Both the position numbers and the translations under genes were made by a program. The notes under the pieces are model-generated. The model was not told the DNA's origin. It did no database searches and worked only from the letters and a program-made list of their open reading frames with translations. DNA of 64,000 nt from a virus (lineage: Duplodnaviria > Heunggongvirae > Uroviricota > Caudoviricetes), in the IMG/VR virus record IMGVR_UViG_3300023184_000031, positions 106,256 through 170,255 of that record; one strand, written 5' to 3'. Of the stretch, positions 10,018 through 33,870 are shown piece by piece (the first letter of the stretch is position 1; the number at the start of each line of letters is the position of its first letter).

Positions 10018-10059
10018 AATAGTAGTTGAAAGGCAAAATAAAAATCATAGATTCCGGTT

Positions 10060-11885: not shown

Positions 11886-12198
11886 TGATGCAAAATCATT
11901 TCAAGAATTTACAAAATATATAGAGAAAAAGAATATGATAACAAAAGACATAATTACAGATCTAGTAATAGAAGATTTAACATCTAGAGCAGAGCGTGGG
12001 TATAAAAAATATAACACTACTCTAGGTGAAAATAACCATCAAAATATGCTTCAACATGCCTATGAGGAAGCACTAGATCTAGCTCAATATCTTAAAAAAG
12101 AGATTGTAACAATGAATACAATTCAAGACTTATTAGAAAATCATCCAAACGATTCTGAATTAGGGTACGCAATAAGAAGAGTGTATGGCAAAAAGTAA
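11872..12198 (+). CDS. Hypothetical protein.
   Basis: ORF. Confidence 0.45.
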   Translation: MGYISDAKSFQEFTKYIEKKNMITKDIITDLVIEDLTSRAERGYKKYNTTLGENNHQNMLQHAYEEALDLAQYLKKEIVTMNTIQDLLENHPNDSELGYAIRRVYGKK

Positions 12199-13158: not shown

Positions 13159-13350
13159 ATGGCAAAAATGCAATTAACATCCGTAAAGATTCCTGAGGGT
13201 TTATTTGAACAATTTAAAATTGCGTGTGTTAGGTATAAATTTAGCGTACAGAAATTAACAGAACGTTCAATGTTCTTATACTTAACAGACGAAGAATACA
13301 GAAAAAATATTCATAACACTTTAGACACACAATTTACAGGAAGTATTTAA
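13159..13350 (+). CDS. Small ribbon-helix-helix-like putative regulator.
   Basis: 63 aa 'VKIPEGLFEQFKIACVRYKFSVQKLTERSMFLYL' fits a beta-strand + two-helix CopG/Arc pattern. Preceded by the motif 'tatatatttatataaaataatatattatgg'. Confidence 0.35.
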   Translation: MAKMQLTSVKIPEGLFEQFKIACVRYKFSVQKLTERSMFLYLTDEEYRKNIHNTLDTQFTGSI

Positions 13351-13360
13351 AAACAGTTAC

Positions 13361-14821
13361 ATGAAAGAAGGTTACATTCCCCAAGCACAACGAAAAAAAA
13401 TCCTATTACTTTGCGATGACATTAGAATGACATCAGGTATCTCTACAATGGCTAGAGAAATTGTATTAGGTACAGCCCATCATTACAATTGGGTAAATTT
13501 AGGTGGAGCCATCAACCACCCAGATCAAGGTAAACGATTTGATCTTAACGCAGATACAAATCAACATGCTGAAATAGACGATGCTAATGTTATCTTATAT
13601 CCTACTAATGGATATGGTGATCCAATGCTCCTAAAACAAATGATTCAAATGGAAAAACCAGATGCAATCATGATGTTTACTGATCCAAGATATTGGGTTT
13701 GGTTATTTCAAATGGAACATGAGATTAGAAAAGAAATGCCTATTATTTATCTTAATATTTGGGATGATTTACCTTACCCAATGTATAATAAGTCATTCTA
13801 TGAATCATGCGACGCATTATTAGCAATTAGCAAACAAACAGAAAATATCAATCATTGCGTTTTAGGAGCAGAAATATCAGCTGAAAAAACAATTAAGTAT
13901 GTTCCACACGGTATTAATGAAAAATTCTTCTTTCCTATTACTAAAGAACATCCAGAATACTTATCATTACAAGAATTTAAAAAACAATTATATGGAGATA
14001 AATCGTACGATTTTACTTTACTATATAATGCGCGTAACATCCGCCGTAAATGTGTTCCTGATCTAATGCTTGCCTGGAAGATATTCGTTGATGAATTACC
14101 AGAAGATAAAGCAAAGAAAACAGCATTAGTACTTCACACACAACCTATAGATGAAAATGGTACTGACCTATACGCAGTAAAAGATATGTTATTCGGTAAC
14201 GAAGAAAAATACAATATTATCTTTGATCAAGGTAGATATCCATCAAACGTAATGAATCTAATGTATAACGCTACTGACGGATGTGCTTTAATCAGCTCAA
14301 ATGAAGGATGGGGATTATCATTAACTGAAGCAATGATTTGTGGAAAACCAATTATAGCAACAGTAACAGGTGGTATGCAAGATCAAATGCGCTTTGAAGA
14401 TGAAGATGGTAATTGGATTAAATTTACTGAAGAATTTGGCTCAAACCATAGAGGAAAATATAAAAAACATGGCAAGTGGGCATACCCAGTATTCCCAAGC
14501 AATTTATCAATTGTAGGTTCAATTCCAACACCTTATATCTTCGATGATAGAGCAGAACCATTTGATATAGCAGCTCAAATATCAGCCTTATATGAAACTA
14601 AAATGACAATGCCTGAACAATATGCTGAAGAATGTAAAGCGGCTCACGAATGGGTTCATTCGGATGAATCAATGATGACAGCAAAACATATGGCGGATAA
14701 TATAATTGAAGGCATTGATGCAACCTTTGCTAAATGGCAACCACGTCATAGATTCGAATTAATTCAAGTAGAAACACCAAAACAACCTAAACATTACGTA
14801 AAACACGCAATCGCAAAATAA
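13361..14821 (+). CDS. Glycosyltransferase, GT-B fold (GT4-like).
   Basis: C-terminal 'ISSNEGWGLSLTEAMICGKPIIATVTGG' matches the GT4 E-x7-E region. Confidence 0.75.
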   Translation: MKEGYIPQAQRKKILLLCDDIRMTSGISTMAREIVLGTAHHYNWVNLGGAINHPDQGKRFDLNADTNQHAEIDDANVILYPTNGYGDPMLLKQMIQMEKPDAIMMFTDPRYWVWLFQMEHEIRKEMPIIYLNIWDDLPYPMYNKSFYESCDALLAISKQTENINHCVLGAEISAEKTIKYVPHGINEKFFFPITKEHPEYLSLQEFKKQLYGDKSYDFTLLYNARNIRRKCVPDLMLAWKIFVDELPEDKAKKTALVLHTQPIDENGTDLYAVKDMLFGNEEKYNIIFDQGRYPSNVMNLMYNATDGCALISSNEGWGLSLTEAMICGKPIIATVTGGMQDQMRFEDEDGNWIKFTEEFGSNHRGKYKKHGKWAYPVFPSNLSIVGSIPTPYIFDDRAEPFDIAAQISALYETKMTMPEQYAEECKAAHEWVHSDESMMTAKHMADNIIEGIDATFAKWQPRHRFELIQVETPKQPKHYVKHAIAK

Positions 14822-14826
14822 GTTAT

Positions 14827-16137
14827 ATGAAACCACTATTTTTTATTAGCTGTCCGATCGACACGTACAGCGGCTACGGAGCACGTAGTAGAGATATTGT
14901 AAAAGCGCTTTTAAAATCGGATAAATACGACATTAAAATTATACCACAGAGATGGGGATCTACCCCATTTGGGTTTTTACAAGCAAATAACCCTGAACAT
15001 AAGCAAATTTTAGATTGTTGCTGGAATCAACCCCAACTACCTAAACAACCAGATGTTTGGATGCAAATTACAGTACCAAATGAATTTCAAGCAGTTGGTA
15101 AATTCAATATTGGTATGACAGCAGGTATTGAAACAACAGTATGTGATCCTAGCTGGATAGAAGGATTAAATAGAATGAACCTAAATCTAGTATCATCAGA
15201 ACATGCTAAAAAAGTATTTGAACAATCAATATTTGAACAACGTGATAAAAATCAAGGCGACAAGGTAGTTGCTACTATTAAATTAGAAAAACCAGTTGAA
15301 GTATTATTTGAAGGAGCAGATACAAATATATATCAAAAATTAGATGCTGTTGCTGGTAATAGTGAAGTAGGAGATGTATTAGATACAATTAATGAAGAAT
15401 TTAATTATCTATTTGTAGGCCATTGGTTGCAAGGCGATTTAGGACAAGATAGAAAAGATACAGGTATGTTAATTAAGATATTCCTTGAAACATTTAAAGG
15501 AAAAACTAAAAAGCCAGGCCTTGTTCTTAAAACATCATCTGCTACATATTCAATTATGGACAGAGAAGAAATATTAGAAAAAATAAATAAAATACGTGCT
15601 CATGTAGGTGATGATGGTACATTACCTAATGTCTACTTACTACATGGTGAATTAGAAGATAGCGAAGTAAATGAATTATATAATCACCCTAAAATAAAAG
15701 CACACGTATCATTTACTAAAGGAGAAGGATATGGTAGACCATTACTTGAAGCATCAATTAGCCAAAAACCAGTAATTGCTTCTAATTATAGCGGCCATAT
15801 TGATTTTCTAGAGGCTGAAATGTCGGTATTATTACCCGGACAAGTAACACAAATTCATCCTTCAGCAGTAGTACAGAATATGCTATTACCTGAATCAGGT
15901 TGGTTTACAGTTGATTATAAGAAAGCATCTGAAACATTAGAAGATGTTTATAAGAACTATAAAAACTATCTTGATGGGGCAAAAAGACAAGCGTATCGTT
16001 CACGTACTGAGTTTAGTTTAGATAAAATGGGTGAAAAATTAATTTCAATAATTGATGAAAAAGTACCTAAACCGGTTCAATTAAAACTCCCACAACTGAA
16101 GAAAATCGAATTACCTAAACTAAAAAAAGTAGATTAA
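14827..16137 (+). CDS. Glycosyltransferase, GT-B fold (GT4-like).
   Basis: 'FTKGEGYGRPLLEASISQKPVIASNYSGHIDFL' motif. Confidence 0.7.
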   Translation: MKPLFFISCPIDTYSGYGARSRDIVKALLKSDKYDIKIIPQRWGSTPFGFLQANNPEHKQILDCCWNQPQLPKQPDVWMQITVPNEFQAVGKFNIGMTAGIETTVCDPSWIEGLNRMNLNLVSSEHAKKVFEQSIFEQRDKNQGDKVVATIKLEKPVEVLFEGADTNIYQKLDAVAGNSEVGDVLDTINEEFNYLFVGHWLQGDLGQDRKDTGMLIKIFLETFKGKTKKPGLVLKTSSATYSIMDREEILEKINKIRAHVGDDGTLPNVYLLHGELEDSEVNELYNHPKIKAHVSFTKGEGYGRPLLEASISQKPVIASNYSGHIDFLEAEMSVLLPGQVTQIHPSAVVQNMLLPESGWFTVDYKKASETLEDVYKNYKNYLDGAKRQAYRSRTEFSLDKMGEKLISIIDEKVPKPVQLKLPQLKKIELPKLKKVD

Positions 16138-16138
16138 T

Positions 16139-16378
16139 ATGACACCAAACGAATTTATAACATGGTTTAAAGGATTTGCTCAAGCAGCAAGTAATTATAC
16201 CCTTACACCATCCCAATGGGATATTGTTAAAGACCAATTAGATAAAGTAAATACAGAGGAAAAAACAAAAGGAACTAGATATACATTAGATGCTAGTAAT
16301 TGGAATACTACTTCCACAGGAAAAATAACAGATACTACTTATAAACAAGATGAATTAACAACAAATACAGTATTTTAA
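16139..16378 (+). CDS. Hypothetical protein.
   Basis: ORF. Confidence 0.4.
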   Translation: MTPNEFITWFKGFAQAASNYTLTPSQWDIVKDQLDKVNTEEKTKGTRYTLDASNWNTTSTGKITDTTYKQDELTTNTVF

Positions 16379-16771
16379 ATGACAGAAAAACTAATAGACT
16401 GCCCTAGATGCGGATCAAACGCTTGTAGCGAAATGTCAGATGGTAAAGTATCTATCTGGATTTGTATGGGATGTGGATTTACCTCAAATACCACCATTAC
16501 CGATCTTAATAAAGAACAAATGGAAACTACGCTACCAGAGTTATATAAAGCACTTAGATATAAAGATCAAAATGGAAAATATTGGTATCCTAATAGCGTA
16601 ATGCTAGAAGATAAATCAATGGTGTTTGCTGAGGGTGTATCAATAGAAAATTGGAAATGGTCAGCTGTACAATCGAAAGATGGTAAAGCAGATATGACAA
16701 CAAAACAAGAATTTCCTGAACGCGAATTTATGGACGCGTTAGAATATATTGGTTACTTTAACGGAAAATAA
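16379..16771 (+). CDS. Zinc-ribbon protein.
   Basis: 'CPRCGSNAC...WICMGCGF'. Confidence 0.45.
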   Translation: MTEKLIDCPRCGSNACSEMSDGKVSIWICMGCGFTSNTTITDLNKEQMETTLPELYKALRYKDQNGKYWYPNSVMLEDKSMVFAEGVSIENWKWSAVQSKDGKADMTTKQEFPEREFMDALEYIGYFNGK

Positions 16772-16777
16772 TAATTT

Positions 16778-17434
16778 ATGAAAATTAGTTATGGATTGAC
16801 AGCTTGGATTGAACACCAAGAGTTAGATAGGTTACTAACCTTCTTAAAACCTAGAATAGAGGATGAAGATGAGATTATAATTGTTTATGATCAAAATAGA
16901 GCTACTCCCGAAGTAATGGCCATTATGGAAAATTTTAAAAGAGATAATTATAGATATTATCCATTTAATTTCCAACAAGATTGGTTAGCCAACAAAAATT
17001 ATTTAGGAAGCATGTGTACAGGAGATTATATATTCCAAATAGATGCAGATGAATTACCAAATGAATTTTTGCTACAAAATATAAAAATTCTATTAGAAAA
17101 CAATCCCGCAGATGTGTTTATTATTCCTAGAATTAATCTTGTTGAAGATCTCACCCCAGAACATATCCAACAGTGGGGATGGAGAGTAAATGAAAAAGGA
17201 TGGGTTAATTTTCCCGATCCTCAAAAACGCTTATATCGTAATGATCCTTCCATTCAATGGCGTGATCCTGAAGGTCAACCTCAAGTACATGGAATGGTGA
17301 CAGGATATAAAACATATGCTGAATTACCTTATGAAGAAGAATGGTCACTATATCATATGAAACATATTACTAAACAAGAATATCAAAATAGAGTATATGA
17401 TATTGTATTAAAAGGAGGAAAAAGAAATGACTAA
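16778..17434 (+). CDS. Putative GT-A fold glycosyltransferase.
   Basis: 'IIIVYDQN' and DxD-like 'QIDADE'. Assignment is weak. Confidence 0.35.
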   Translation: MKISYGLTAWIEHQELDRLLTFLKPRIEDEDEIIIVYDQNRATPEVMAIMENFKRDNYRYYPFNFQQDWLANKNYLGSMCTGDYIFQIDADELPNEFLLQNIKILLENNPADVFIIPRINLVEDLTPEHIQQWGWRVNEKGWVNFPDPQKRLYRNDPSIQWRDPEGQPQVHGMVTGYKTYAELPYEEEWSLYHMKHITKQEYQNRVYDIVLKGGKRND

Positions 17435-18377
17435 AACAGCTTTTATAACAGGAATATCTGGACAAGATGGATCTTTATTGGCTGAGTTTCTTTTAGGTAA
17501 AGGATATAAAGTTTATGGGTTGATGAGAGAAAATTCATCAAAGGATAATTTAGAAGATATTATTAATAATAAAAATCTTTATATTATATATGGTGATTCT
17601 TTAAATAATGAATTAATACGTTATTTACTAGAAACATATCAATTTGATGAAATATATAATTTAGCTTCTCAAAGTAATATTAGATTAAGTTATGATAATC
17701 CTTTAATTACATTTAATGTAACATTAATAGGAACACTTATACTATTAGAAAATATCAAAAAATATTCTCTTAAATCAAAAATATTTCAAGCCGGTTCATC
17801 AGCTATGTTTGGAAATTCAATTGATAAAGATGGATTTCAAAGAGAAACATCCCCATTCAAACCAATCAGTCCATATGCTTCCTCTAAATTATTTGCTTTT
17901 AATGTTAGCAATAATTATAGAGAAAATAATGGATTATACGTGGTTAATGGGATATTATACAATCATGAATCTTTTAAATCAAAAACATTACTTGGTGTTA
18001 CGAATAATATAATTAAACATATTACTAATATTAAAAAAGGTATTATATCTGAATATTATGTACCTAATTTTAAAGTTTATTTAGATATAGGCAATGCTGA
18101 AGATTATATAGAAGCAATGTGGCTAACTCTACAACAAGCAAAACCGGATGATTATATTATATCTACCGGTATATTAAATAGCATAGAACATATATGTCAA
18201 TATACTTGTTCTAAACTTAATTTAGATTATAAGCAATGTATCAAAACTGAAAGTAATTCAATAGAGTTACCTAAATTAAAAGGAGATTCATCCAAATTAA
18301 AATCAATAGGATGGAATCCAAAATATACATTTGAAAATACAATGGATGAAATTATTAACTTTTATATTACCTTATGA
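17427..18377 (+). CDS. gmd: GDP-mannose 4,6-dehydratase.
   Basis: 'AFITGISGQDGSLLAEFLLGKGYKVYGLMR'. 'SPYASSKLFAFNVSNNYRENNGLYVVNGILYNHES'. Confidence 0.85.
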   Translation: MTKTAFITGISGQDGSLLAEFLLGKGYKVYGLMRENSSKDNLEDIINNKNLYIIYGDSLNNELIRYLLETYQFDEIYNLASQSNIRLSYDNPLITFNVTLIGTLILLENIKKYSLKSKIFQAGSSAMFGNSIDKDGFQRETSPFKPISPYASSKLFAFNVSNNYRENNGLYVVNGILYNHESFKSKTLLGVTNNIIKHITNIKKGIISEYYVPNFKVYLDIGNAEDYIEAMWLTLQQAKPDDYIISTGILNSIEHICQYTCSKLNLDYKQCIKTESNSIELPKLKGDSSKLKSIGWNPKYTFENTMDEIINFYITL

Positions 18378-19273
18378 AAATATTAGTTACAGGAGGAAAG
18401 GGTTTAGTTGGTTCTGCCATAAATGCAGATATTAAAATAGGAAGAGAGTTTGACTTAACTTCTCAGATAGAAACTAATATGGCGTTTGAATTACACAAAC
18501 CAACACATGTTATTCATTGTGCTGGGAAAGTAGGTGGAGTTGGTAGTAATATGAAATATAAGGGAGAATTTTTTTATGATAACATAATGATTAATACTAA
18601 TGTTATCGAATCTTGTAGAAAACATAACATTGAGAAATTATTGGCCTTCTTATCTACATGTATTTTTCCAGATAATGTTGAATATCCATTAAATGAAAAA
18701 AAAATTCATATAGGCCCTCCTCATACTTCTAATGACGCTTATGCATATGCAAAACGTATGTCAGACATACAAATAAGAGCATATAAAGAACAATACGGAC
18801 TAAATTACACCTCAGTAATACCAACTAATATATATGGAATTAATGATAATTTTTCATTAGAAAATGGGCATGTCATTCCAATGTTAATGCATAAATTATA
18901 TTTAGCCCAAAAAAATAACACAGATTTTATTGTATGGGGTAGCGGAAAACCATTAAGGGAATTTATATATTCTAAAGATATTGCAAAATTATCTGAATGG
19001 GCAATTGAGAACTATAATGAGATAGAACCTATTATCTTTACTAACTCACAAGAAATTAGTATAATGAATTTAGTTGATTTATTAGTTAAAGAGTTTAACT
19101 TTAAGGGTAAAGTCGTATTTGACTCAACAAAACCTGATGGTCAATTTAGAAAACCTTCGGATAATAGTAAACTAAAATCATATTTACCTGATTTTCAATT
19201 TACATCGATTGAAATAGGTATTAAAGAAACTGTAAAATGGTTTATTGAAAATTATGAAAATATAAGAAAATAA
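18374..19273 (+). CDS. GDP-4-keto-6-deoxymannose 3,5-epimerase/4-reductase (Fcl/ColC-like SDR).
   Basis: 'KILVTGGKGLVGSAI'. 'YAYAKRM'. 'PTNIYGINDNFSLENGHVIPMLMHK' resembles Fcl 'NLYGPHDNF..SHVIPAL'. Confidence 0.75.
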   Translation: MKILVTGGKGLVGSAINADIKIGREFDLTSQIETNMAFELHKPTHVIHCAGKVGGVGSNMKYKGEFFYDNIMINTNVIESCRKHNIEKLLAFLSTCIFPDNVEYPLNEKKIHIGPPHTSNDAYAYAKRMSDIQIRAYKEQYGLNYTSVIPTNIYGINDNFSLENGHVIPMLMHKLYLAQKNNTDFIVWGSGKPLREFIYSKDIAKLSEWAIENYNEIEPIIFTNSQEISIMNLVDLLVKEFNFKGKVVFDSTKPDGQFRKPSDNSKLKSYLPDFQFTSIEIGIKETVKWFIENYENIRK

Positions 19274-19275
19274 AT

Positions 19276-20088
19276 ATGAAATTATTTATAAGCCATATTA
19301 ACAAAGATCTTTTAGAAAAAAAATTAAAATTTATAAAACATATAGATTTTTCTTTATTTGTAGATGCAACCCCTCAATCTTTAGATGATTTATCTTCTAT
19401 TAATATATTAATACTTCAAGAACCAAATGAATATTTTGGTTTACATGATTGGGCTATAAAAAATAAAGATTTATTTTCTTTTATATTAACATGGAATGAT
19501 AAAGTAATTAATAATTGTGAAAATGCTATCTTTTTACCTTTTGGCCATACCTGGTTTAAACCAGAACAATATAAAAAAAACCATCAAAAACAGTTTCAGT
19601 TATCTCATTTATGTGGTAAATTATTAAAAACCTATGGTCATTCCTTAAGACATGAATTGTTAGCTAGACAAAATGAAATAAAAATACCCCTTAAATTTTT
19701 TGATGTTTATGGTGATAGATATAATATTGAAGAGGCTAGATTAGGAAAAGAATTTATTTTTAGCGATTCAATGTTTGGAGTAGCTATTGAAAATACTTCC
19801 CATAATGGTTATTTCACAGAAAAAATACTAGATTGTTTTTTATTGAAAACAATTCCCGTATATTGGGGATGTTCATCTATATCAAATTTCTTTAGGCAAG
19901 ATGGAATTATTACATTTAATAATATTGATGATTTTATTGTTAAAGTTAACCAATTAGATGAAATCTATTATAATGATCGTCTAAAGATTATTGAAGAAAA
20001 CTATCAATTAGCTCTCCAATATGTTGATTATGAACAAAACATAATAAATAAAATAACAGAAATATTTAAATTAAATAATTTAATATAA
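19276..20088 (+). CDS. GT10-like alpha-1,3-fucosyltransferase family protein.
   Basis: 'FGVAIENTSHNGYFTEKILDCFLLKTIPVYWG' matches the GT10 motif (F..AFENS...Y.TEK...A...G.VPVV). Confidence 0.6.
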   Translation: MKLFISHINKDLLEKKLKFIKHIDFSLFVDATPQSLDDLSSINILILQEPNEYFGLHDWAIKNKDLFSFILTWNDKVINNCENAIFLPFGHTWFKPEQYKKNHQKQFQLSHLCGKLLKTYGHSLRHELLARQNEIKIPLKFFDVYGDRYNIEEARLGKEFIFSDSMFGVAIENTSHNGYFTEKILDCFLLKTIPVYWGCSSISNFFRQDGIITFNNIDDFIVKVNQLDEIYYNDRLKIIEENYQLALQYVDYEQNIINKITEIFKLNNLI

Positions 20089-20091
20089 TAC

Positions 20092-21405
20092 ATGCAAGAA
20101 ATATTAAAATTAGTGGATGAATACATCCAGAAAAAGCACTCAGAAAAAACATGGGAAGCTGGTAAAGATTGGGTTCAATACGCTGGTCCCTATTTTGATT
20201 CTCAAGAATACATAGCCGCTGTTAAAACCTTATTAGGTGAATGGTTAGTATTAGGAGCTGAAGCAATTAAGTTTGAAAATAAATTTCCTAAGTTATTTGG
20301 TAAAAAATATGGACTATTAACTAATAGTGGTTCAAGTGCTAATTTATTGATGATGTTAGCAATGACATCAAAACGAGGATATAATTTTCCTAAAGGTACT
20401 AAGGTAATAACACCAATAGCCGGATTTCCAACCACAATTAATCCAATACTTCAATTAGGATTCACACCAGTATTTGTTGATATTGAGCTAGAAACACTTA
20501 ATCTAGATTTAGATCAAGTAGAACAAGCATGTATTGATAATCCTGATGCTAAAATTATTACATTTGCTCATGTGTTAGGTAATCCACCTAATATGAATCG
20601 ACTAATGGAAATGGTTGAAAAATATAAATTAATTCTATTAGAAGATTGTTGTGATGCCTTAGGATCTTCATTTGAAGGTAAACCATTAGGATCATTTGGG
20701 GAAATGGCTAGCTGCTCATTTTACCCAGCACATCATATTACAATGGGAGAAGGTGGATTTGTAGCTATGAATAATGTAGATACAGAACGTATTGTTCGTA
20801 GTTTTAGAGAATGGGGCCGTGGTTGTTATTGCGTTGGTAAACAAAATCTACTAGAAAATGGTAGCTGTGGATGTCGTTTCAATAACTGGCTACCAGCATT
20901 ACCAAACGATATATTTGATCACAAATATGTTTATGAAGAAATTGGTTATAATTTAAAACCAATTGAATTACAAGCATCAATGGGTTTAGTTCAAATGACT
21001 AAATTAGAAGAAATAGGAATTAAACGTAGAGAGAATTATAAAAATTTATTTGCTGCATTTAGTAAATACAAACAATATTTTCATTTACATGAATCACAAC
21101 CAGGGGCAGATGTTGATTGGTTTGCTTTTCCTATAACAGTAAAAGATGGAGCACCATTTAAACGCTCTGATATCTGTCAATTTTTAGAAGCAAACAAAAT
21201 ACAAACTCGCCCTTATTTTGCAGGTAATATTATGCTCCAACCAGCATATACACATTTGATGGATTCTAAAGAAGTAATTGAAAAATATCCTGTAGCTAGA
21301 AAAGTAACTACTGATACCTTCTTTTTAGGAACATCACCTGTAATCAATAAAGAAAAAACAGATTATATAGAAACAATATTAGATAAATTTATTAATACTT
21401 TATGA
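20092..21405 (+). CDS. DegT/DnrJ/EryC1-family PLP/PMP enzyme, 3-dehydratase type (ColD/E1-like) with Cys-rich insert.
   Basis: 'LLTNSGSSANLLMM'. The active-site region 'CSFYPAHHITMGEGGF' has His-His where aminotransferases have Lys. Insert 'GCYCVGK..GSCGCRF'. Confidence 0.75.
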   Translation: MQEILKLVDEYIQKKHSEKTWEAGKDWVQYAGPYFDSQEYIAAVKTLLGEWLVLGAEAIKFENKFPKLFGKKYGLLTNSGSSANLLMMLAMTSKRGYNFPKGTKVITPIAGFPTTINPILQLGFTPVFVDIELETLNLDLDQVEQACIDNPDAKIITFAHVLGNPPNMNRLMEMVEKYKLILLEDCCDALGSSFEGKPLGSFGEMASCSFYPAHHITMGEGGFVAMNNVDTERIVRSFREWGRGCYCVGKQNLLENGSCGCRFNNWLPALPNDIFDHKYVYEEIGYNLKPIELQASMGLVQMTKLEEIGIKRRENYKNLFAAFSKYKQYFHLHESQPGADVDWFAFPITVKDGAPFKRSDICQFLEANKIQTRPYFAGNIMLQPAYTHLMDSKEVIEKYPVARKVTTDTFFLGTSPVINKEKTDYIETILDKFINTL

Positions 21406-26483: not shown

Positions 26484-27411
26484 AATTTTAACTCACTTAA
26501 TGCCTTGGGAAATAGATTATGCATTATTGTCTTTTTCTCAACTTAAAAAAGTTCAAAAACACATTCCGGAAGAAGTAAATATTGAGTTTGATAATGTTTT
26601 AAATTTATCTAGTAATATTATAGATTGGGATAAAAGTAAATTTCCTAAAGAATATTTTATAGATAAGTATAAAGATATTTGTAAAGGATTTAGTACAATT
26701 AAAATCAATTCTAAAATAATAGATTCTAATATATTTTATGGACATTTAGACCTTCAAAGAGAGTGTAAATCTCCTCACATAGATTATTACATTCCTTTTT
26801 GCCCAGATATGTATTTTGGAGAATATTTAATTCCATATATAATTGAATCTATTAAAAATATCTCTAATAAACATTTCATCATAACTCCTCAAGTAACAAA
26901 AAGATGGGATCCTAGTTGGGATATTTTAGTTAATGAAAACTTTTTAAATATTTCATATAGTCATTGTTTTGATTTAAATCACTATGAGGTAGATATTATA
27001 AATAATCCCTCAACCCCAGAATTAATTCCACTTAATGGATTTAAATATGCTGGTTGGTTTGATTGTTATAGTAAAGAAATTTGGGAAACTTTCTGTCCCG
27101 TATGGGATGAATGGAGTGGCTATGGATCCTGGGATACTTATTCTATGTATACTTTATCTTTATTAAAACAAAAAGGATATGATATTCAACAATATATTTT
27201 AAAAAATCAAGTAATATCAGAATACTGGAATGGTAATGAATCTCAACAAAATTGGGATATAGATACTTATAAAGAAAAAAATAGTGAAGGATTATGTGGA
27301 TACTATAAAAAACAATTGTATATTAATAAAAATAAAGAAGGAAAATTAGATTATACTAGACTTCAAGAATATGCAATTACTCAATTTAATAAAATAATAA
27401 ATAATGGATAA
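26473..27411 (+). CDS. Hypothetical protein, Trp/Tyr-rich, inside the sugar island.
   Basis: ORF with ATGA-type overlaps to both neighbours. Confidence 0.45.
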   Translation: MNIKILTHLMPWEIDYALLSFSQLKKVQKHIPEEVNIEFDNVLNLSSNIIDWDKSKFPKEYFIDKYKDICKGFSTIKINSKIIDSNIFYGHLDLQRECKSPHIDYYIPFCPDMYFGEYLIPYIIESIKNISNKHFIITPQVTKRWDPSWDILVNENFLNISYSHCFDLNHYEVDIINNPSTPELIPLNGFKYAGWFDCYSKEIWETFCPVWDEWSGYGSWDTYSMYTLSLLKQKGYDIQQYILKNQVISEYWNGNESQQNWDIDTYKEKNSEGLCGYYKKQLYINKNKEGKLDYTRLQEYAITQFNKIINNG

Positions 27412-28255
27412 AATAAATGTATTCGGAGGAACAGGGTTTATAGGAAGTAAATTTTGCCAATTACACCCAGAACATATTATATTAAATGATAGAAATGATT
27501 ATATACCTAAAACAAATAATATATTATACTTTATAAGTACTATTGATAACTATAATGTTCATAAAGATTTACATATTGATGTAGATACTAATTTAACAGT
27601 ATTATTAAATGTATTAGAAAATATTAAAAATAATCCAACTAAAGATATCACATTTAATTTTATTAGTTCTTGGTTTGTTTATGGACAAAACGATAAAATT
27701 CCTTTTAAAGAAAATGATCTAGGATGTAACCCAACAGGATTTTATTCTATAACAAAAAGATGTGCTGAGCAATTAATTATTAGTTTTTGTGAAACATATG
27801 ATATAAAATATAGGATATTTAGATTGGCAAATGTATTAGGGGAAGGAGATAAAAAAATATCAAAAAAGAAAAATGCACTTCAATTTTTAATTCAAGAAAT
27901 AGCTAATAATAGGAATGTTGAACTATATTATGGAGGAAATGTTTTAAGAGATTATATATATGTTGATGATGTGTGTAATGCCGTGTTTCATTGTATAAAT
28001 AAAGCCCCAATAAACGAAATAATAAACATTGGAAGTGGCAAACCATATCTATTTTTGAATATTATAAAAGATGCTATAGTTAAAGCTAATTCTAAATCTA
28101 AAATTATAGAAATTCATCCAACCCATTTCCACAATATTGTTCAAGTAAAAAATTCATATTTAGATACTACTAAGTTAACTAATTATGGATATAAATGTGA
28201 ATATGATATTGATGAAATAGTTCAAAAACTTGTAGATCATTATAAAAATCAATGA
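27404..28255 (+). CDS. NAD-dependent epimerase/dehydratase family SDR.
   Basis: 'INVFGGTGFIGSKF'. 'YSITKRCAEQL' (YxxxK). Confidence 0.65.
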   Translation: MDKINVFGGTGFIGSKFCQLHPEHIILNDRNDYIPKTNNILYFISTIDNYNVHKDLHIDVDTNLTVLLNVLENIKNNPTKDITFNFISSWFVYGQNDKIPFKENDLGCNPTGFYSITKRCAEQLIISFCETYDIKYRIFRLANVLGEGDKKISKKKNALQFLIQEIANNRNVELYYGGNVLRDYIYVDDVCNAVFHCINKAPINEIINIGSGKPYLFLNIIKDAIVKANSKSKIIEIHPTHFHNIVQVKNSYLDTTKLTNYGYKCEYDIDEIVQKLVDHYKNQ

Positions 28256-28950
28256 ATAAATATCTAATAATATCACCAGTAGGAGATGAATCTCTTCACC
28301 CAGAATGGGTTAAAGAAAAAACTAATTTTGATTTAGTTTTAATTTATTATGGAGATAATGAATCTATTGCTGAGTCAAATATAAAATATACCCCTTATGT
28401 ATATGCTGCTAAAGGAGAAAAATATCATTTAATCAAATCATTTATAGAATCTAATATTGAGTTTATTTCTAATTATACCTACATTTGGATCCCAGATAAT
28501 GATGTTCTAATATCAACCAAAAATATTAACAGATTATTTGAGATAGCAACTCAATATCAACTCTCCATTTGCCAACCATCAATGGATGGGTATGTTTCTC
28601 ATGAAATAACAAAACCAGTCCCTAACAATATATTACGTTATACTAATTTTGTTGAAGTATTAGCACCTTTATTTGATTTAAAATCACTATTAAAAGTGTA
28701 TAAAACATTTGATTTAAATTATTCAAGTTGGGGATATGATTACTTGTGGCCTCATCTTTTAGATTATCCTAAAGATAAAATAGCAATTATAGATGGTATA
28801 ATAATGACCCACACAAAACCAGTAGGACAAAGTTATTCTCGCTTTCCTGTAGCTCCTTGGGAAGAAATGAATTGGTTATTATATTCATATAATATTAAAA
28901 AAGAAGAAATAAATTATTCACAAATAATAAAAAATGAATATATATTTTAA
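28252..28950 (+). CDS. Hypothetical protein; possible glycosyltransferase-like.
   Basis: ORF within the island. No diagnostic motif recognised. Confidence 0.4.
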   Translation: MNKYLIISPVGDESLHPEWVKEKTNFDLVLIYYGDNESIAESNIKYTPYVYAAKGEKYHLIKSFIESNIEFISNYTYIWIPDNDVLISTKNINRLFEIATQYQLSICQPSMDGYVSHEITKPVPNNILRYTNFVEVLAPLFDLKSLLKVYKTFDLNYSSWGYDYLWPHLLDYPKDKIAIIDGIIMTHTKPVGQSYSRFPVAPWEEMNWLLYSYNIKKEEINYSQIIKNEYIF

Positions 28951-29692
28951 AGAAACACAATTCGGTCATTTTTGTCTTATTGAGAAAGATTTAATTAGTA
29001 ATTGTATTAGTAATTATGGATATTGGGAGCAGCATCTACATTATTTTTATTCTCAATTTATTAAACCAAATGATGTTGTTATAGATGGAGGAGCAAATTT
29101 AGGATTTCATAGCATTCAGTTTGCTAAATTAGCTAATCAAGGAAAAGTATATTGTTTTGAACCTCAACCATTAATATTCAATGTATTATCTACTAATATA
29201 TTAATTAATGGAGCTACAGACATAATAAAACAATTTAGATTAGGATTAAGTGATAAAGAAGAGCAATTGAAAATGTCCCCACTTAAAGATCAAATATTCT
29301 CAGAAGATTGCATTAATTATGGAGGAAGAGCTTTAACAAATTCAGAAGAGGGTGAAGAAGAAGTTCAATTAACTAATATAGATAGTTTAAATTTATCTAA
29401 ATTAGATTTAATAAAATTAGATGTACAGGGATTTGAATTAGAAACTATTAAAGGTGGAGAAAAAACAATAAAAAATAACTATCCTATATTCTTTTTAGAA
29501 AATTATATTGATCAAGAAAAAGATCAAGAAGTAATTAAACTACTACAAGAATGGGGATATATTAATTATAGACTAGATATAGGAAATAAAGAAGATTGCA
29601 TACTAGTATACCCAGATAAACATAAATCAGAAATAAAATTTATAGAGACACAAACTAAAATAAAATATAATAAATTAAAGGATGAATATTAA
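28934..29692 (+). CDS. FkbM-family methyltransferase.
   Basis: 'VVIDGGANLGFHSIQFAKLANQGKVYCFEPQPLIFNVL'. Confidence 0.75.
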   Translation: MNIYFKETQFGHFCLIEKDLISNCISNYGYWEQHLHYFYSQFIKPNDVVIDGGANLGFHSIQFAKLANQGKVYCFEPQPLIFNVLSTNILINGATDIIKQFRLGLSDKEEQLKMSPLKDQIFSEDCINYGGRALTNSEEGEEEVQLTNIDSLNLSKLDLIKLDVQGFELETIKGGEKTIKNNYPIFFLENYIDQEKDQEVIKLLQEWGYINYRLDIGNKEDCILVYPDKHKSEIKFIETQTKIKYNKLKDEY

Positions 29693-31037
29693 ATTAATTA
29701 TATTTGATTTAGATGGAGTTTTAGTTGAAGCTAAACGTATTCATTATGATGCTTTAAATAAAGCATTGGGAGAAAAGTATGCTATAGAATGGAATGAGCA
29801 TTTATCAATCTATGATGGTTTAAAAACAAACCAGAAACTTGAAATATTAACAGAGAGAAAAGGATTATCTATTAATCTGTATAAAGAGGTATGGGATAAT
29901 AAACAAATGTATACTTTACAAGAACTAAGAAATCTTAAAGTTAATTCTGAATTAGTAACAACTATGACTATGTTAGTTAATGAAGGATATAAATTAGCTG
30001 TATGTTCCAATAGTATTAGAAAAACTGTGTTAACAGTACTATCTAAATTAGGTATTATTGAATTCTTTGATTTAATATTATCAAATGAAGATGTTAAAAA
30101 TAGTAAACCACATCCTGAAATGTATTGGAAGACAATGTCAACAATGGGATGCCTACCAGAAGAAGTATTAATTGTTGAGGATTCACCATATGGTTTATTA
30201 GCAGCAAGTAGAAGTAAAGCTCATGTAATGAGAGTTGGTTCTCCTAAAGAGGTTACATATATTAATATCCATAAACATTTAAATAAAGAAAGAATGAATG
30301 TTACTCCTAAATGGAAAGATGAAAAATTAAATGTATTAATTCCAATGGCTGGAGCTGGTTCTAGATTCGAACAAGCAGGTTATACATTTCCAAAACCACT
30401 TATTGATGTTAGAAATAAACCAATGATTCAGGTTGTTATTGAGAATCTTAATATTGATGCCAATTATATATATCTTGTTCAGAAAAAACATAGAGAAAAA
30501 TATAATTTAGATACTTTACTTAATCTACTTACTCCTGGTTGTAAAATAGTAGAAGTAGACGGTATAACTGAAGGAGCGGCTTGTACTGCATTGTTAGCTA
30601 AAGAATTTATTGGTAATGACAGTCCATTATTCTTTGCTAATTCTGATCAATTTGTAGAGTGGGATTCAAATGACTTTATGTACAAGATGCAAGAAACAAA
30701 TGCTGATGGAGGTATAGTTACATTTAAAGCAACTCATCCTAAATGGTCATTTGCTAAAATTGATGAAAATGGATTAGTAACAGAGGTAGCAGAAAAAAAT
30801 CCAATATCTGATAATGCAACAGTAGGATATTATTTTTGGAAACATGGGTCTGATTTTATTAAATATGCAGAACAGATGATTGAAAAGAACATTCGTGTTA
30901 ATAATGAATTCTATGTTTGCCCTGTATTTAATCAAGCAATTACCGATAATAAAGAAATTAGAACATTTAATGTTGAAGGAATGTGGGGATTAGGCACACC
31001 AGAAGACTTACACTATTATTTAGAAAATTACAAATGA
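29682..31037 (+). CDS. Bifunctional HAD-family hydrolase/phosphomutase fused to an NDP-sugar/phospho-alcohol nucleotidyltransferase.
   Basis: N-terminal 'IIFDLDGVLVEA', 'KPHPEMY' and 'VEDSPYGLLAA' (HAD-IA). C-terminal 'LIPMAGAGSRFEQAGYTFPKPLIDVRNKPMIQ' (G-x-G-[ST]-R nucleotidyltransferase signature). Confidence 0.7.
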   Translation: MNIKLIIFDLDGVLVEAKRIHYDALNKALGEKYAIEWNEHLSIYDGLKTNQKLEILTERKGLSINLYKEVWDNKQMYTLQELRNLKVNSELVTTMTMLVNEGYKLAVCSNSIRKTVLTVLSKLGIIEFFDLILSNEDVKNSKPHPEMYWKTMSTMGCLPEEVLIVEDSPYGLLAASRSKAHVMRVGSPKEVTYINIHKHLNKERMNVTPKWKDEKLNVLIPMAGAGSRFEQAGYTFPKPLIDVRNKPMIQVVIENLNIDANYIYLVQKKHREKYNLDTLLNLLTPGCKIVEVDGITEGAACTALLAKEFIGNDSPLFFANSDQFVEWDSNDFMYKMQETNADGGIVTFKATHPKWSFAKIDENGLVTEVAEKNPISDNATVGYYFWKHGSDFIKYAEQMIEKNIRVNNEFYVCPVFNQAITDNKEIRTFNVEGMWGLGTPEDLHYYLENYK

Positions 31038-31480
31038 TACTAATATCACATAGAGGAAATATTAATGGTAGAATTATTGAAGCTGAAAATAAACCTGAAT
31101 ATATCGATGATACTATTCGCTTAGGATATGATGTTGAAATTGATATGTGGTGGGTTGATGGTCAAATATATCTGGGGCATGATAAACCACAATATGAAGT
31201 GAGCGATGAATGGTTAGGAGACAGAGTTGATAAGTTGTGGATTCACTGTAAAAATGTTGAGTTATTAAATTGGATCAAAAGTACATCATTACATTACTTT
31301 TGGCATGAAAATGATACAGTGACATTAACATCAAAAAATTATCTTTGGGTTTACCCAGGGAAACAACCTATAATAGGAAGTATAGCAGTAATACCAGAGC
31401 TATATAAAGATAATACATCGAAATGTATAGGAGTTTGTTCAGATTATATACAAAATTATAAGAATGGTATTATTATTTAA
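31034..31480 (+). CDS. Short glycerophosphodiester-phosphodiesterase-like protein.
   Basis: 'MILISHRGN'. 'DVEIDMWWVDGQIYLGHD'. ATGA overlap with the upstream gene. 148 aa, shorter than typical GDPD. Confidence 0.6.
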   Translation: MILISHRGNINGRIIEAENKPEYIDDTIRLGYDVEIDMWWVDGQIYLGHDKPQYEVSDEWLGDRVDKLWIHCKNVELLNWIKSTSLHYFWHENDTVTLTSKNYLWVYPGKQPIIGSIAVIPELYKDNTSKCIGVCSDYIQNYKNGIII

Positions 31481-32669
31481 TGTTTTTATTACTAACAAAT
31501 CCTCTACTGGAGGACAGTGGGAGAGACTAGGAGTAACGTATGATAGAGGAAATTTATCTACTCCTAATAAACTAGATATATTAAAATATAGTTTAGCTAG
31601 CTATGCAGTAGCATACCCTTGGAAAAGAATAATATTAAATTTAGAGTTAGATCCTGATTATATCCCACCCAGTAGACAATCAGAATTAAAAGAATTTGCT
31701 TTTAAAATATTTAAAAATATTGAAATATTCTATTCAGAACGAAGAAATGTAACACAAGAAGATTGGATTAAAACTTACGACTTAATTAATGATGATGTTA
31801 TTTTTTATCAAGGTAATCATGATCATATTTTTATAGACAGTTCAACATCTTATCTAGAAGAATTAGTTAAATTAAGAGAAACATATGGAGAAAATTTAAC
31901 TATTTCAACATCTCATTTTCCTGAATGTGTTAGAACATCTAAAGGATGTTATATAGATTTATTTAAAGGAGAAACTCAACCCTCTTTATTCAACTCAGAT
32001 TATGAATTAAAAAATAATCATTTTTCTAGAACAACTCCTGTTTTTGATAGTTTAATTATTATAACTAAAGAAATTTATAAAAATTGGTTTTTAGAAGGAG
32101 ATTGGTCTCAAATTCAATTCCCCCCTGAGTTATTTACTTCAGGCAAATTAGAATTAGCTCGAACTGAAGGAACCGGAATAATAGGATTATCAGAAATAAA
32201 AAAGTTAATTAAAAGTCCAATAATTAAACAGATATTAATTTCTCCATATAAAGAAATATTTAGACATTTTGATGGATATTATCATCAATATATAACAAAT
32301 AATCAATGCCCTGCTCTTGATATACCTCCTGGCTTTTTTGAAAATAATATTAAAATCAGATATGGATATGAAAATTATATAGAGGGTTGGGTAAATATTA
32401 ACCCAAAAAATGAACATTACTATGCTTATGATAAATCAGGAACGGATTATAAATTTACTTTAAATGAAATTCCTTTATTTTGGAAAAGCAGAATATCTAA
32501 AATAGATTCAAATCCTAATATTGATGAAGAAGAAATGGTTCAATATAGACTAAAATCAATATTAGAAATGATATATACTCATCCTTATTACGAACCCTAT
32601 ATAGATAAAGAATTAGAAAATAAAATATTAAACAAATATTTAGAAAATTATCCTGGATATGAATATTAA
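31464..32669 (+). CDS. Hypothetical protein within the island.
   Basis: 401 aa ORF. Confidence 0.45.
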   Translation: MVLLFNVFITNKSSTGGQWERLGVTYDRGNLSTPNKLDILKYSLASYAVAYPWKRIILNLELDPDYIPPSRQSELKEFAFKIFKNIEIFYSERRNVTQEDWIKTYDLINDDVIFYQGNHDHIFIDSSTSYLEELVKLRETYGENLTISTSHFPECVRTSKGCYIDLFKGETQPSLFNSDYELKNNHFSRTTPVFDSLIIITKEIYKNWFLEGDWSQIQFPPELFTSGKLELARTEGTGIIGLSEIKKLIKSPIIKQILISPYKEIFRHFDGYYHQYITNNQCPALDIPPGFFENNIKIRYGYENYIEGWVNINPKNEHYYAYDKSGTDYKFTLNEIPLFWKSRISKIDSNPNIDEEEMVQYRLKSILEMIYTHPYYEPYIDKELENKILNKYLENYPGYEY

Positions 32670-33870
32670 AAATATGGAAAAAATAACATTTTGCATCCCA
32701 AGTAAATCAAATTTACGTTATCTTAAAACATGTATCCCTTCAATTAGAGAAAATGCATATAGAAAAGATCATGATATTATTATATTTGTTGATCAAGATA
32801 ATGATGGTACAGTTGAATGGTTAGAGCAAGTTAAAGATGAATATAATATAACGTATTATGTTAATCCATATTTAGGAGAAAAATTATTTGGTATTGGTAA
32901 AGGTTATGATTATTGTATTGAAAAATCAACAACAGATGTTTTTATGATATTCCATGCTGACATGATGCTTGGAAAAGATGCTGATTTATATGCTTATAGT
33001 TGTTTAAAAAGTAAAACTGCTGTTTGTTCAACTAGAATTGAACCACCCTTACATCCAAATGGTGGAGAAAAAATACTAATTGATTATGGAATATGGCCGG
33101 AAGAATTTAAAAAAGATGAATTTAATAAGTATGTTGAATCTCAAACAAAAGAAACTAAAATAACAAATGGAATATTTGCTCCTTGGATGTTATTTAAAGA
33201 TGAATTTCTAGCAATAGGAGGACATGACCCTATATTAAAATCAGCACGAGAAGATTCAGATGTATTTAATAGATTAAAATTAGCAGGATTTACATTTATT
33301 CAACCCTGGAATAGCTTAGTGTACCATTTAACTGGTAGAGGAGGACAGTTCCAGCATGGTAAAATAACTCAAGAACATTCTCAAAAAAGTGAAGAATGGC
33401 AAAAATTAATGCATAATTCAACTAAAGAATTTATACGTAAATGGGGTTCAAGTGTTAAACATACTCCCTTAATGGACCCTATCATATCTCCTAAATATAA
33501 TATTGCCTTTGTAGTTAATAATTGTAACTTACAATTACTAGAGGTATTAGAACCATGGTGTGATAGAATATACACCAGTGAAATATATAATATAGGTAGA
33601 ATGTGGGATTATGTAGAAATAGAACAATCAAACACAGAATTTGATTTAAGTAAACGTGTATTAACAATTGAAAATAATAACCCTATAGCAGAAAATAATA
33701 TTATAATTGAATTTGATGCGACTAAATTAAATCAAAATAATTTTCAATTACTACAACAATTACCCGAAATTATACAGGACTCAGGTGAACTTGGACAGTT
33801 TGAATTAGATATATTTAAAATAACAATTAATAGCTTAGAAACATATGAGCATACTTTAATAAAAATTTAG
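32659..33870 (+). CDS. GT2-like glycosyltransferase.
   Basis: 'ITFCIPSKSNLRYLKTCIPSI'. 'DIIIFVDQDNDGT' DxD motif. Confidence 0.55.
   Translation: MNIKNMEKITFCIPSKSNLRYLKTCIPSIRENAYRKDHDIIIFVDQDNDGTVEWLEQVKDEYNITYYVNPYLGEKLFGIGKGYDYCIEKSTTDVFMIFHADMMLGKDADLYAYSCLKSKTAVCSTRIEPPLHPNGGEKILIDYGIWPEEFKKDEFNKYVESQTKETKITNGIFAPWMLFKDEFLAIGGHDPILKSAREDSDVFNRLKLAGFTFIQPWNSLVYHLTGRGGQFQHGKITQEHSQKSEEWQKLMHNSTKEFIRKWGSSVKHTPLMDPIISPKYNIAFVVNNCNLQLLEVLEPWCDRIYTSEIYNIGRMWDYVEIEQSNTEFDLSKRVLTIENNNPIAENNIIIEFDATKLNQNNFQLLQQLPEIIQDSGELGQFELDIFKITINSLETYEHTLIKI

Follow-up and report, generated by a model that had tools for sequence, protein, structure and literature searches.

Why does a large lytic phage carry a whole block of sugar genes, and on what acceptor would the encoded glycan be assembled? 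This question is raised by a 64,000-nt stretch of phage DNA (IMG/VR record IMGVR_UViG_3300023184_000031, positions 106,256 to 170,255; hereafter the window, in whose positions all coordinates are given). At 13159–33870 the window contains an island of 24 consecutive plus-strand open reading frames (ORFs), and Pfam and NCBIfam scans of the window ORFs, using the NCBIfam equivalog cutoffs, identified almost every island gene as encoding a nucleotide-sugar enzyme or a glycosyltransferase (GT). The gaps between these ORFs range from −17 to +10 nt, the majority of neighbours overlapping by 4–17 nt, and the entire window is coding on the plus strand. With moderate confidence, we propose that the island is the glycan locus of an Immutovirus-like (Flavobacterium-type) lytic myovirus of ~170 kb, in which GTs bracket a swappable cassette and a virion protein is the most likely acceptor.

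The island sits in real phage DNA. Upstream of it lie a GIY-YIG endonuclease, a family-B DNA polymerase (PolB), GroES/GroEL, a gp44-like clamp loader and a PD-(D/E)XK nuclease, and downstream a ClpP-like protease, two tRNAs and an endolysin-type peptidase. A segment of host chromosome, a host locus adjacent to a prophage or a chimeric metagenome join could account for the lower GC content of the cassette (0.27, compared with 0.33–0.35 in the flanks) and for the many enzymes with bacterial homologs, but phage genes stand on either side of the island, on the same strand and with overlapping reading frames throughout. The window is carried by a 170,341-bp contig (ENA ERZ3460575 NODE_84); the exact E1 protein of the cassette and identical neighbours were found on three contigs, including an independent assembly of 168,414 bp (ERZ27247968), and 13 IMG/VR contigs as well as the genomes of two cultured phages have a homologous frame. 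Moreover, the thiamine diphosphate (ThDP)-dependent enzyme of the island shares at best 51% identity with bacterial proteins, compared with 82% in other viral contigs. Given the phage genes in both flanks, the independent assemblies and the cultured relatives, we rejected a host or chimeric origin, to which we assign almost no probability. A Bacteroidota host is supported by the host of the cultured relative immuto (Flavobacterium phage vB_FspM_immuto, Immutovirus immuto, NC_055915, 160 kb; host Flavobacterium sp. LMO8), in which a synteny comparison found the matching local gene order, and by a CHU_C domain of the type IX secretion system (T9SS) in ORF 47562–48137 (46 bits; cutoff 27). A PD40/OmpA protein encoded in the window and the binning of one related phage contig into a 'Bacteroidota bacterium' metagenome-assembled genome (MAG) also fit such a host. 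An earlier note on this DNA, made from the letters alone, had described about 25 consecutive same-strand sugar genes between phage replication genes and ClpP in a Bacteroidota phage, and the present data agree with it in these respects. A megablast search with the island and both flanks gave no match among GenBank phages, and a scan for sigma-70 promoters and terminators was uninformative, promoter-like sites being fewer than in shuffled sequence.

More than 100 related IMG/VR loci were recovered using the nuclease and ClpP as anchors; 13 contigs carry both, with a nuclease-to-ClpP span of 7.8–26 kb. Within the island, a conserved head (13159–17434; small ORF, GT4, GT4, Zn-ribbon and GT2) and a semi-conserved terminal GT2 enclose a variable cassette (17427–32669). 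The anchors and the conserved frame are as follows:

12185–13129, plus strand: PD-(D/E)XK nuclease, upstream anchor, a backbone and not a glycan gene (PF12705, 83.8 bits)
13159–13350, plus strand: conserved 63-aa protein at the island entrance (homologs in 83 related loci, up to 98% identity)
13361–14821, plus strand: first head GT of GT4 type (GT-B fold; PF00534, 37.7 bits; phrog_2170; 78 loci)
14827–16137, plus strand: second head GT of GT4 type (PF00534, 27.9 bits; phrog_2170; 72 loci)
16139–16378, plus strand: 79-aa ORF variably present in the head (phrog_28500, function unknown; 11 loci)
16379–16771, plus strand: conserved 130-aa Zn-ribbon protein (weak Lar_restr_allev and Zn_ribbon matches, below cutoff; 62 loci)
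16778–17434, plus strand: head GT2 (GT-A fold; PF00535, 36.4 bits; 54 loci, ~40–48% identity)
32659–33870, plus strand: terminal GT2, semi-conserved, at the 3' end of the island (PF00535, 35.9 bits; 24 loci, 46–80% identity)
33896–34435, plus strand: ClpP-like protease, downstream anchor and backbone gene (PF00574, 89.3 bits)

Homologs of the nuclease occur in 85 related loci and those of the ClpP-like protease in 31 related viral loci, and the terminal GT2 homolog is often the last gene ahead of ClpP in relatives. In immuto, gp183–gp169 repeat the arrangement, with the nuclease (gp183, 45% identical), an ORF of ~61 aa (gp182, 52%), two GTs (gp181 and gp180, 56% each), the small Zn-ribbon ORF (gp179, 38%), the GT2 (gp178, 40%), a cassette and the terminal GT2 (gp169, 48%), and with GroES/GroEL upstream. 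In Microcystis phage Mel-JY01, whose PolB is 34% and whose first GT4 is 41% identical, the frame is present with a minimal cassette of four genes. The cassette of the window comprises the following genes:

17427–18377, plus strand: GDP-mannose 4,6-dehydratase (GMD), divergent and short, first cassette gene (PF16363, E=2.8e-78; best NCBIfam model gmd TIGR01472, 240.6 bits, cutoff 415)
18374–19273, plus strand: GDP-L-fucose synthase-like (Fcl/GMER) short-chain dehydrogenase/reductase (SDR; PF01370, E=5e-48; best NCBIfam model GDPFucSynFcl NF047922, 241.8 bits, cutoff 500)
19276–20088, plus strand: GT10-like (fucosyltransferase family) GT (PF00852, 30.2 bits, cutoff 23.9)
20092–21405, plus strand: E1/RfbH, a pyridoxamine 5'-phosphate- and [2Fe-2S]-dependent nucleoside diphosphate (NDP)-4-keto-6-deoxyglucose 3-dehydrase of the DegT family (NF011936 RfbH, 458.1 bits, cutoff 423)
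21402–22349, plus strand: RmlB-like NDP-hexose 4,6-dehydratase (TIGR01181, 303 bits, cutoff 365)
22343–22891, plus strand: DJ-1/PfpI-family protein of the ThDP module (PF01965, 115.7 bits)
22891–23559, plus strand: cupin-like protein (weak) of the ThDP module, with conserved His (Cupin_2 and phosphomannose isomerase C-terminal matches, below cutoff)
23552–23938, plus strand: small HAD-like ORF (weak) of the ThDP module (NT5C, 17 bits, below cutoff)
23935–25701, plus strand: YerE-like ThDP-dependent carboligase, predicted to act in sugar C-branching (three TPP domains; GDG motif visible)
25698–26483, plus strand: SDR following the ThDP module, candidate YerF-like branch ketoreductase (PF01370, 71.5 bits)
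26473–27411, plus strand: cryptic GT of GT-A fold, unannotated family (predicted structure)
27404–28255, plus strand: second SDR, of NDP-sugar epimerase/reductase type (PF01370, 103.9 bits)
28252–28950, plus strand: DUF707 protein (PF05212, 40.5 bits, cutoff 24.1)
28934–29692, plus strand: FkbM-family methyltransferase (PF05050, 64 bits; TIGR01444, 90.5 bits, cutoff 37.7)
29682–31037, plus strand: fusion of a HAD domain (beta-phosphoglucomutase family) with a sugar-1-phosphate nucleotidyltransferase (HAD_2, 109.7 bits; NTP_transferase, 46.2 bits)
31034–31480, plus strand: 148-aa protein with GDPD-like N-terminal motifs (phrog_34507, function unknown)
31464–32669, plus strand: 401-aa protein with a GT-A-like N-terminal and a beta-rich C-terminal domain, probable GT (predicted structure)

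The two parts of the island differ strongly in their distribution. Head genes were found in 54–83 loci, compared with only 1–24 for most genes of 17427–32669, many of the latter matches being distant paralogs. The three closest phages have backbone proteins that are about 80–95% identical, yet of the 18 cassette genes they have only 1–7 in common with it, and those mostly with low identity. Conversely, the cassette is 77–93% identical in a phage whose backbone identity is ~60% (ClpP 62%), the series GT10-E1-RmlB-DJ1-cupin-HAD-ThDP-SDR-GT-A-SDR-DUF707-GT2 ranging there from 66 to 93%. Low GC content is likewise a property of the cassettes of most relatives (0.26–0.30, compared with 0.33–0.35 in their flanks). 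Pfam scanning of 127 non-redundant proteins encoded by the cassettes of relatives revealed the same kinds of genes: 20 Epimerase-family SDRs, 16 GT2 and five DegT proteins, and many methyltransferases, RmlC and Polysacc_synt_2 proteins and two-component ThDP enzymes. By sequence comparison, the cassette is hypervariable and horizontally exchanged between conserved GT borders. Because the frame is also found in immuto and in the distant Mel-JY01 while the cassettes differ, the GTs of the frame appear to be old and intrinsic to the lineage, and the cassette mobile. Regarding other cassettes, that of one relative (L201, 13761–14837) encodes a Rieske/ring-hydroxylating oxygenase together with PglD-like and TylF-like enzymes, a sign that this phage family has still other unusual ways of tailoring sugars.

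What kind of sugar such a cassette would supply is best seen in the genes around the ThDP enzyme. E1 matches Yersinia E1 (PDB 3BCX/3BB8) over its full length (E~1e-98), and the AHH motif (His-His replacing Lys), EDCC and the cysteines of CxC...C all align, as do the four Cys. The adjacent RmlB-like protein has the fold and family features of a 4,6-dehydratase and scores only 70 bits on the CDP-type model. For the ThDP enzyme, the best PDB match is JanthE (8RPH; 360 bits, compared with 240 bits for the best acetolactate synthase), and JanthE belongs to the YerE-like enzymes (PMC12188165). YerE takes activated acetaldehyde from pyruvate and adds it to CDP-3,6-dideoxy-4-keto-glucose, i.e., the product of E1, and thereby yields yersiniose (PMC12188165, PMC12247030). 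The ThDP branched-sugar module occurs on roughly 100 viral contigs. Of 80 viral loci with a ThDP homolog, 46 have an E1-type gene no more than 6 kb away from it, and 58 have the downstream SDR; among 80 bacterial loci, 39 have an E1-type gene at a distance of up to 10 kb. Relatives keep the frame E1-RmlB-X-SDR-GT-A, in which X is either the DJ-1/cupin/HAD/YerE-like set or a split ThDP enzyme of transketolase type, and a counterpart of SDR 25698 follows either ThDP type (window and relatives L096, L102, L094, L085 and L201). Transketolase-type ThDP enzymes are another known sugar-branching class (PMC12247030). Since non-orthologous ThDP enzymes replace each other in one slot, the gene order provides strong contextual evidence for a C-branching step that would be followed by ketoreduction and transfer.

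Three small genes co-travel with the ThDP gene in close viral loci, namely DJ-1/PfpI (beside it in 18 of 26, and also in the closest bacterial loci), the cupin-like gene (20 of 26) and the small HAD-like ORF (15 of 26). Several of the closest bacterial loci likewise combine the ThDP gene with DJ-1 and/or cupin genes. For the cupin-like protein, activity as a sugar ketoisomerase or epimerase was considered and could not be shown, its profile reaching a generic cupin (PDB 4E2G) at E=0.026. Likewise, we rejected a clear bacterial donor of the ThDP gene, as the best bacterial matches (48–51%) are scattered over many phyla, and drew no inference on donor or host. Contigs labelled as giant-virus MAGs (L206, L221, L224 and L228; 'GVMAG' in IMG/VR) carry ThDP homologs that are 50–79% identical to the phage enzyme, and L206 also matches the window in its DJ-1/cupin/HAD neighbours. 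The probable reason is mis-binning of phage contigs as giant virus, the alternative being that sugar modules are shared.

The remaining cassette genes include a putative fucose route. GMD and the Fcl-like protein are followed by the GT10-like gene, which adjoins Fcl, has homologs in 23 related loci and matches its family only in the C-terminal catalytic part. As for the supply of GDP-mannose (phosphomannose isomerase (PMI), phosphomannomutase and GDP-mannose pyrophosphorylase), the cassette shows only the sub-cutoff PMI-type similarity of the cupin, and GDP-mannose is probably supplied by the host. The HAD-nucleotidyltransferase fusion is nearest to the beta-phosphoglucomutase family and RmlA_long models of NCBIfam, both below cutoff. 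ORF 31034 had been taken for a GDPD. Its HRG, EN, ExD and HD motifs are indeed invariant across five homologs, but Pfam, NCBIfam and PDB searches gave no match, and a five-sequence profile reached GDPD 7E0V at a non-significant E=0.2 over the first ~50 residues only. GDPDs have ~250 aa, compared with the 148 aa of this protein. Otherwise, the gene list of the earlier note was essentially right: two GT4, two GT2 and one GT10 were recovered by Pfam and NCBIfam, as were GMD, the Fcl-like and RmlB-like enzymes, the DegT 3-dehydratase, the ThDP enzyme, the FkbM methyltransferase and the HAD-nucleotidyltransferase fusion. It had missed DJ-1/PfpI (22343), the cupin (22891), the HAD-like ORF (23552), DUF707 (28252) and the GT-A proteins (26473 and 31464). 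Instead of three SDR reductases, only two (25698 and 27404) exist beyond GMD, Fcl and RmlB, and the RHH-like regulator proposed for ORF 13159 found no match in Pfam, PHROG or PDB.

The two GT-A proteins were recognized from AlphaFold models (pLDDT 89 for ORF 26473 and 93 for ORF 31464). Their families comprise 636 and 567 proteins, respectively, in public metagenomes, all annotated as 'hypothetical'; neither family has a Pfam model, and no member of the first carries a Pfam domain. Both models resemble Mimivirus R699 and chlorovirus hyaluronan synthase at the level of the fold, and we regard the two families as candidate new GT families. With them, the island would encode seven GTs, possibly eight if DUF707 counts. 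A hydropathy scan found no multi-pass membrane protein (more than two hydrophobic segments) either in the island or among 175 cassette proteins of 13 relatives, and the island therefore encodes no priming transferase, flippase, polymerase, ligase or exporter. In agreement with this, the listed Pfam matches of the cassettes include no priming transferase, flippase, polymerase or exporter family.

Based on these observations, we propose that conserved soluble GTs (GT4, GT4 and GT2 of the head and the GT2 at the 3' end) bracket an exchanged cassette, which would supply strain-specific activated sugars and the extra GTs that use them. In the fucose route, GMD and the Fcl-like enzyme would convert host GDP-mannose to GDP-L-fucose for the GT10-type transferase. 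In the branched route, the HAD-nucleotidyltransferase would activate a hexose phosphate and the RmlB-like enzyme would form an NDP-4-keto-6-deoxyhexose. E1/RfbH would then strip the 3-OH with electrons presumably drawn from a host reductase, the YerE-like enzyme would place an acyl branch from a 2-keto acid onto C-4, and the following SDR would reduce this branch, giving a yersiniose-like branched 3,6-dideoxyhexose, for which the neighbouring cryptic GT-A is the probable transferase. Further decoration may come from the methyltransferase and the second SDR. The data show the identities of the genes, their phage context, the conserved frame, the swapping of cassettes and the co-occurrence of E1 with ThDP enzymes, and from these we infer sugar structures, nucleotide carrier, order of steps and acceptor. 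As all GTs are soluble, the supply of NDP-sugars is taken to be self-contained and machinery for export or polymerization is not encoded, the glycan would most likely be built in the cytoplasm on a phage-encoded acceptor, and such an acceptor also fits because the conserved GT borders persist across deep phage divergence while the outer cassette is strain-specific. Our best guess, drawn by analogy with chloroviruses, Megavirinae and mycobacteriophages, is a virion protein. More tentatively, the island could be the phage equivalent of an O-antigen locus, in which the four conserved GTs lay a core glycan on the virion protein and the cassette adds a strain-specific outer glycan (fucose and the ThDP-branched 3,6-dideoxyhexose), thereby creating 'glyco-serotypes' of near-identical, co-circulating phages.

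Several observations weigh against this proposal. In Yersinia, the NAD(P)H-dependent flavin/[2Fe-2S] reductase E3 (DdhD/AscD) is an obligatory partner of E1. A scan for Fe-S and RxYS motifs found no E3 reductase (Fe-S/FNR-like) in the window or in 197 viral loci, although this is a weak test, given that it found none in 80 bacterial control loci either. The 4,6-dehydratase and the nucleotidyltransferase look dTDP-type and not CDP-type, which makes the nucleotide carrier uncertain, and GMD, Fcl and the RmlB-like enzyme all fall below the NCBIfam equivalog cutoffs and are therefore divergent. The closest bacterial ThDP homologs (48–51%) adjoin DJ-1/cupin genes and have no E1 within 10 kb, and this ThDP subgroup might thus take another keto-sugar. 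The model gives no role to five cassette genes (DJ-1/PfpI, cupin-like, small HAD-like, DUF707 and GDPD-like), and there are no structural genes within the window. Finally, peripheral GTs without membrane segments also build O-units linked to undecaprenyl diphosphate, so that host export machinery may be used even though Wzx/Wzy are missing.

This last point leads to a different acceptor. Phage-made NDP-sugars and peripheral GTs might feed the undecaprenyl phosphate-based synthesis of lipopolysaccharide (LPS), capsule or O-glycosylation of the host, whose flippase, polymerase and ligase would take over export, and the altered surface might block superinfection or keep progeny off lysing cells. 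Such surface remodelling has been put forward to explain the 24 'LPS' genes in the lytic cyanophage P-SSM2 (PMC1079782). O-antigen and capsule loci typically contain members of the GT4, GT2, RfbH and YerE families, the hypervariability of the island mirrors that of host O-antigen loci, and the lack of membrane proteins is compatible with this idea, most O-unit GTs being soluble or peripheral. However, neither the window nor the 175 cassette proteins of the 13 relatives include a priming transferase, Wzx, Wzy, ligase or ABC exporter, and a glycan made by seven to eight GTs that differs among near-identical phages would need to be accepted by the specific export machinery of one host. The retention of the GT frame out to Mel-JY01 is better explained by a phage-intrinsic acceptor. 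In addition, no integrase was seen within the 64-kb window, and immuto is a myovirus with a virulent-type gene set. We consider remodelling of the host surface plausible but less likely than a virion acceptor.

Phage DNA as the acceptor appears far less probable still. Here, the conserved GTs would glycosylate modified bases, and the exotic donors made by the cassette would vary this modification as a protection from host nucleases. Some phages are known to use GT-A and GT-B enzymes, relatives of LPS and teichoic-acid GTs, to place mono- to trisaccharides on 5-hydroxymethylcytosine, and the genes often lie beside those for polymerase, clamp and epimerase (bioRxiv 10.1101/2023.12.21.572611). 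The island does lie between the clamp loader/nuclease and the remainder of the early region, and the lineage already modifies its DNA, to judge from a GTP cyclohydrolase I in a sister assembly and the DpdA/7-deazaguanine set of immuto. Base-modification pathways are usually clustered, though (bioRxiv 10.1101/2023.12.21.572611), and Pfam revealed no ThyS-like hydroxymethylase, 5mYOX/TET or cytosine methyltransferase among the ORFs of the 64-kb window; seven to eight GTs together with deoxy- and branched-sugar pathways also go far beyond any known DNA glycan. A virion protein thus remains the acceptor that we favor.

Comparison with known systems shows which features of the locus are new. Reports of sugar clusters in large lytic phages go back to 2005, and these clusters still lack an explanation. 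The T4-like cyanophage P-SSM2 has 24 sugar genes in two clusters (PMC1079782), and Synechococcus phage S-H68 (MK016663) has a cluster of at least 17 kb with a cytidylyltransferase, RmlB, RmlC, SDRs, GT11, GT25 and an E1 that is 43% identical to that of the window. Both resemble the island in being large same-strand epimerase/dehydratase/GT clusters of lytic myoviruses, with a function that is likewise unknown. They belong, however, to Kyanoviridae, and the S-H68 cluster lies beside baseplate genes; no ThDP branching enzyme has been reported and no frame of conserved GTs with swappable cassettes described for them. Immuto has 13 genes at the homologous locus, but its cassette holds eight different genes, including WecE-type aminotransferases, a methyltransferase, a mannosyltransferase, a PglD-like acetyltransferase and an epimerase; it lacks GMD/Fcl, E1, the ThDP enzyme and ClpP at the 3' border, and its polymerase is PolA in place of the PolB of the window. 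Large clusters of sugar genes are thus already known from lytic phages (P-SSM2, S-H68 and immuto), and the statement that phages carry at most one to three such genes does not hold. The serotype-locus-like layout with cassettes swapped in and out and the ThDP branched-sugar pathway appear not to have been described. In the searchable literature, we found no description of conserved GT borders around cassettes exchanged between phages, of a ThDP branched-sugar module whose single slot takes either of two enzyme classes or of the two unannotated GT-A families, no paper linking phages with 3-dehydratase or dideoxyhexose pathways, and no discussion of Mel-JY01 or of the glycan island of immuto, which is annotated.

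Among bacterial systems, the yersiniose/erwiniose pathway of Yersinia pseudotuberculosis and Pectobacterium (DdhA-D, YerE/ErwE and YerF) shares with the window an equivalog-level E1, a 4,6-dehydratase, a YerE-like ThDP enzyme and an adjacent SDR. In contrast to that pathway, the window has no E3, its dehydratase and nucleotidyltransferase are dTDP-type-looking, it adds the DJ-1, cupin and HAD genes, and it belongs to a phage without Wzx/Wzy. O-antigen and capsule loci likewise consist of a fixed slot with conserved borders and low-GC exchanged cassettes of NDP-sugar genes, GTs and modifying enzymes, whereas the window lacks a priming transferase, flippase, polymerase, chain-length regulator and exporter, its borders are themselves GTs, and the replicon is a lytic phage. 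A serotype-converting prophage module (gtrABC, oac) was rejected, as there are no Gtr-type membrane proteins, no integrase in the window, and relatives are myovirus-type phages of ~160–180 kb. Chloroviruses, Megavirinae (PMC10117803; PMC9614988) and mycobacteriophages also encode NDP-sugar synthesis and soluble GTs with lineage-specific content, and rare bacterial-type sugars are made, as predicted here. The hosts of the first two are eukaryotes, however, mycobacteriophages are actinophages with only two to four GT genes, and in the window, unlike in these virion-glycosylating viruses, the variation lies between near-identical genomes at one fixed slot. The likeness to giant viruses drawn in the earlier note is apt as an analogy (virus-encoded, lineage-specific glycan clusters), but not as a sign of an exceptional phage. 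Its description of a complete and autonomous pathway was overstated, given the lack of E3, of a clear GDP-mannose supply and of a flippase, polymerase and priming transferase.

Further observations concern other parts of the genome and related phages. GroES (Cpn10, 7496–7840) and GroEL (Cpn60, 8021–9655) form a pair that is syntenic in immuto. Directly 5' of this pair, the window encodes PolB (3417–6032) and immuto a family-A polymerase (8709–11042), as if, within a single phage lineage, a non-orthologous enzyme had taken the place of the replicative polymerase. A GIY-YIG/NUMOD homing-endonuclease gene (2789–3475) overlaps the start of PolB. In one relative (L004, 10001–13641) the PolB match spans 3.6 kb and not 2.6 kb, suggesting that an intein or homing endonuclease is inserted in this gene. 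Just 5' of PolB, very large proteins (window 112–2718 and upstream) differ between the near-identical assemblies L196 (1–9930) and L197 (2707–9930), with 2094 and 868 aa compared with 1255 and 1146 aa, and the 868-aa protein contains YadA-head-like repeats; this is a second hypervariable locus, possibly encoding fibres or adhesins. The sister assembly L197 also carries GTP cyclohydrolase I and dCTP deaminase upstream (467–1192 and 2090–2620), and immuto has a full QueD/QueE/FolE/QueF/DpdA set (L203, 819–7826); the lineage probably carries 7-deazaguanine-modified DNA. Downstream of the island lie tRNA-Gln(TTG) (37009–37080) and tRNA-Glu(TTC) (37312–37385), followed by a host-envelope-like gene cluster (40102–43047 and 44665–49258) that includes genes for a PD40 + OmpA protein, an outer membrane beta-barrel, an SPFH/Band7 protein, a Big_7 + papain-like peptidase and a PKD-domain protein, as well as the CHU_C ORF.

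With a fixed slot, GT borders and swapped cassettes, the sugar clusters of these phages behave like serotype loci and not like random 'morons', and the conservation of the GTs indicates a conserved, probably phage-encoded, acceptor. For enzymology, the sequences suggest that phages carry ThDP-dependent sugar-branching pathways, with YerE-type and transketolase-type enzymes in the same slot, and the two GT-A-fold families, unannotated and each of ~600 members, should likewise help in the discovery of glycoenzymes. As immuto is cultured, the question of the acceptor (virion, host surface or DNA) is experimentally tractable. If glyco-serotypes exist, they would presumably be under diversifying selection by host glycan-recognizing defences, by grazers or by adhesion to particular host capsules. 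Variable virion glycans, if confirmed, would affect our understanding of phage–host recognition and of phage typing in aquatic Bacteroidota.

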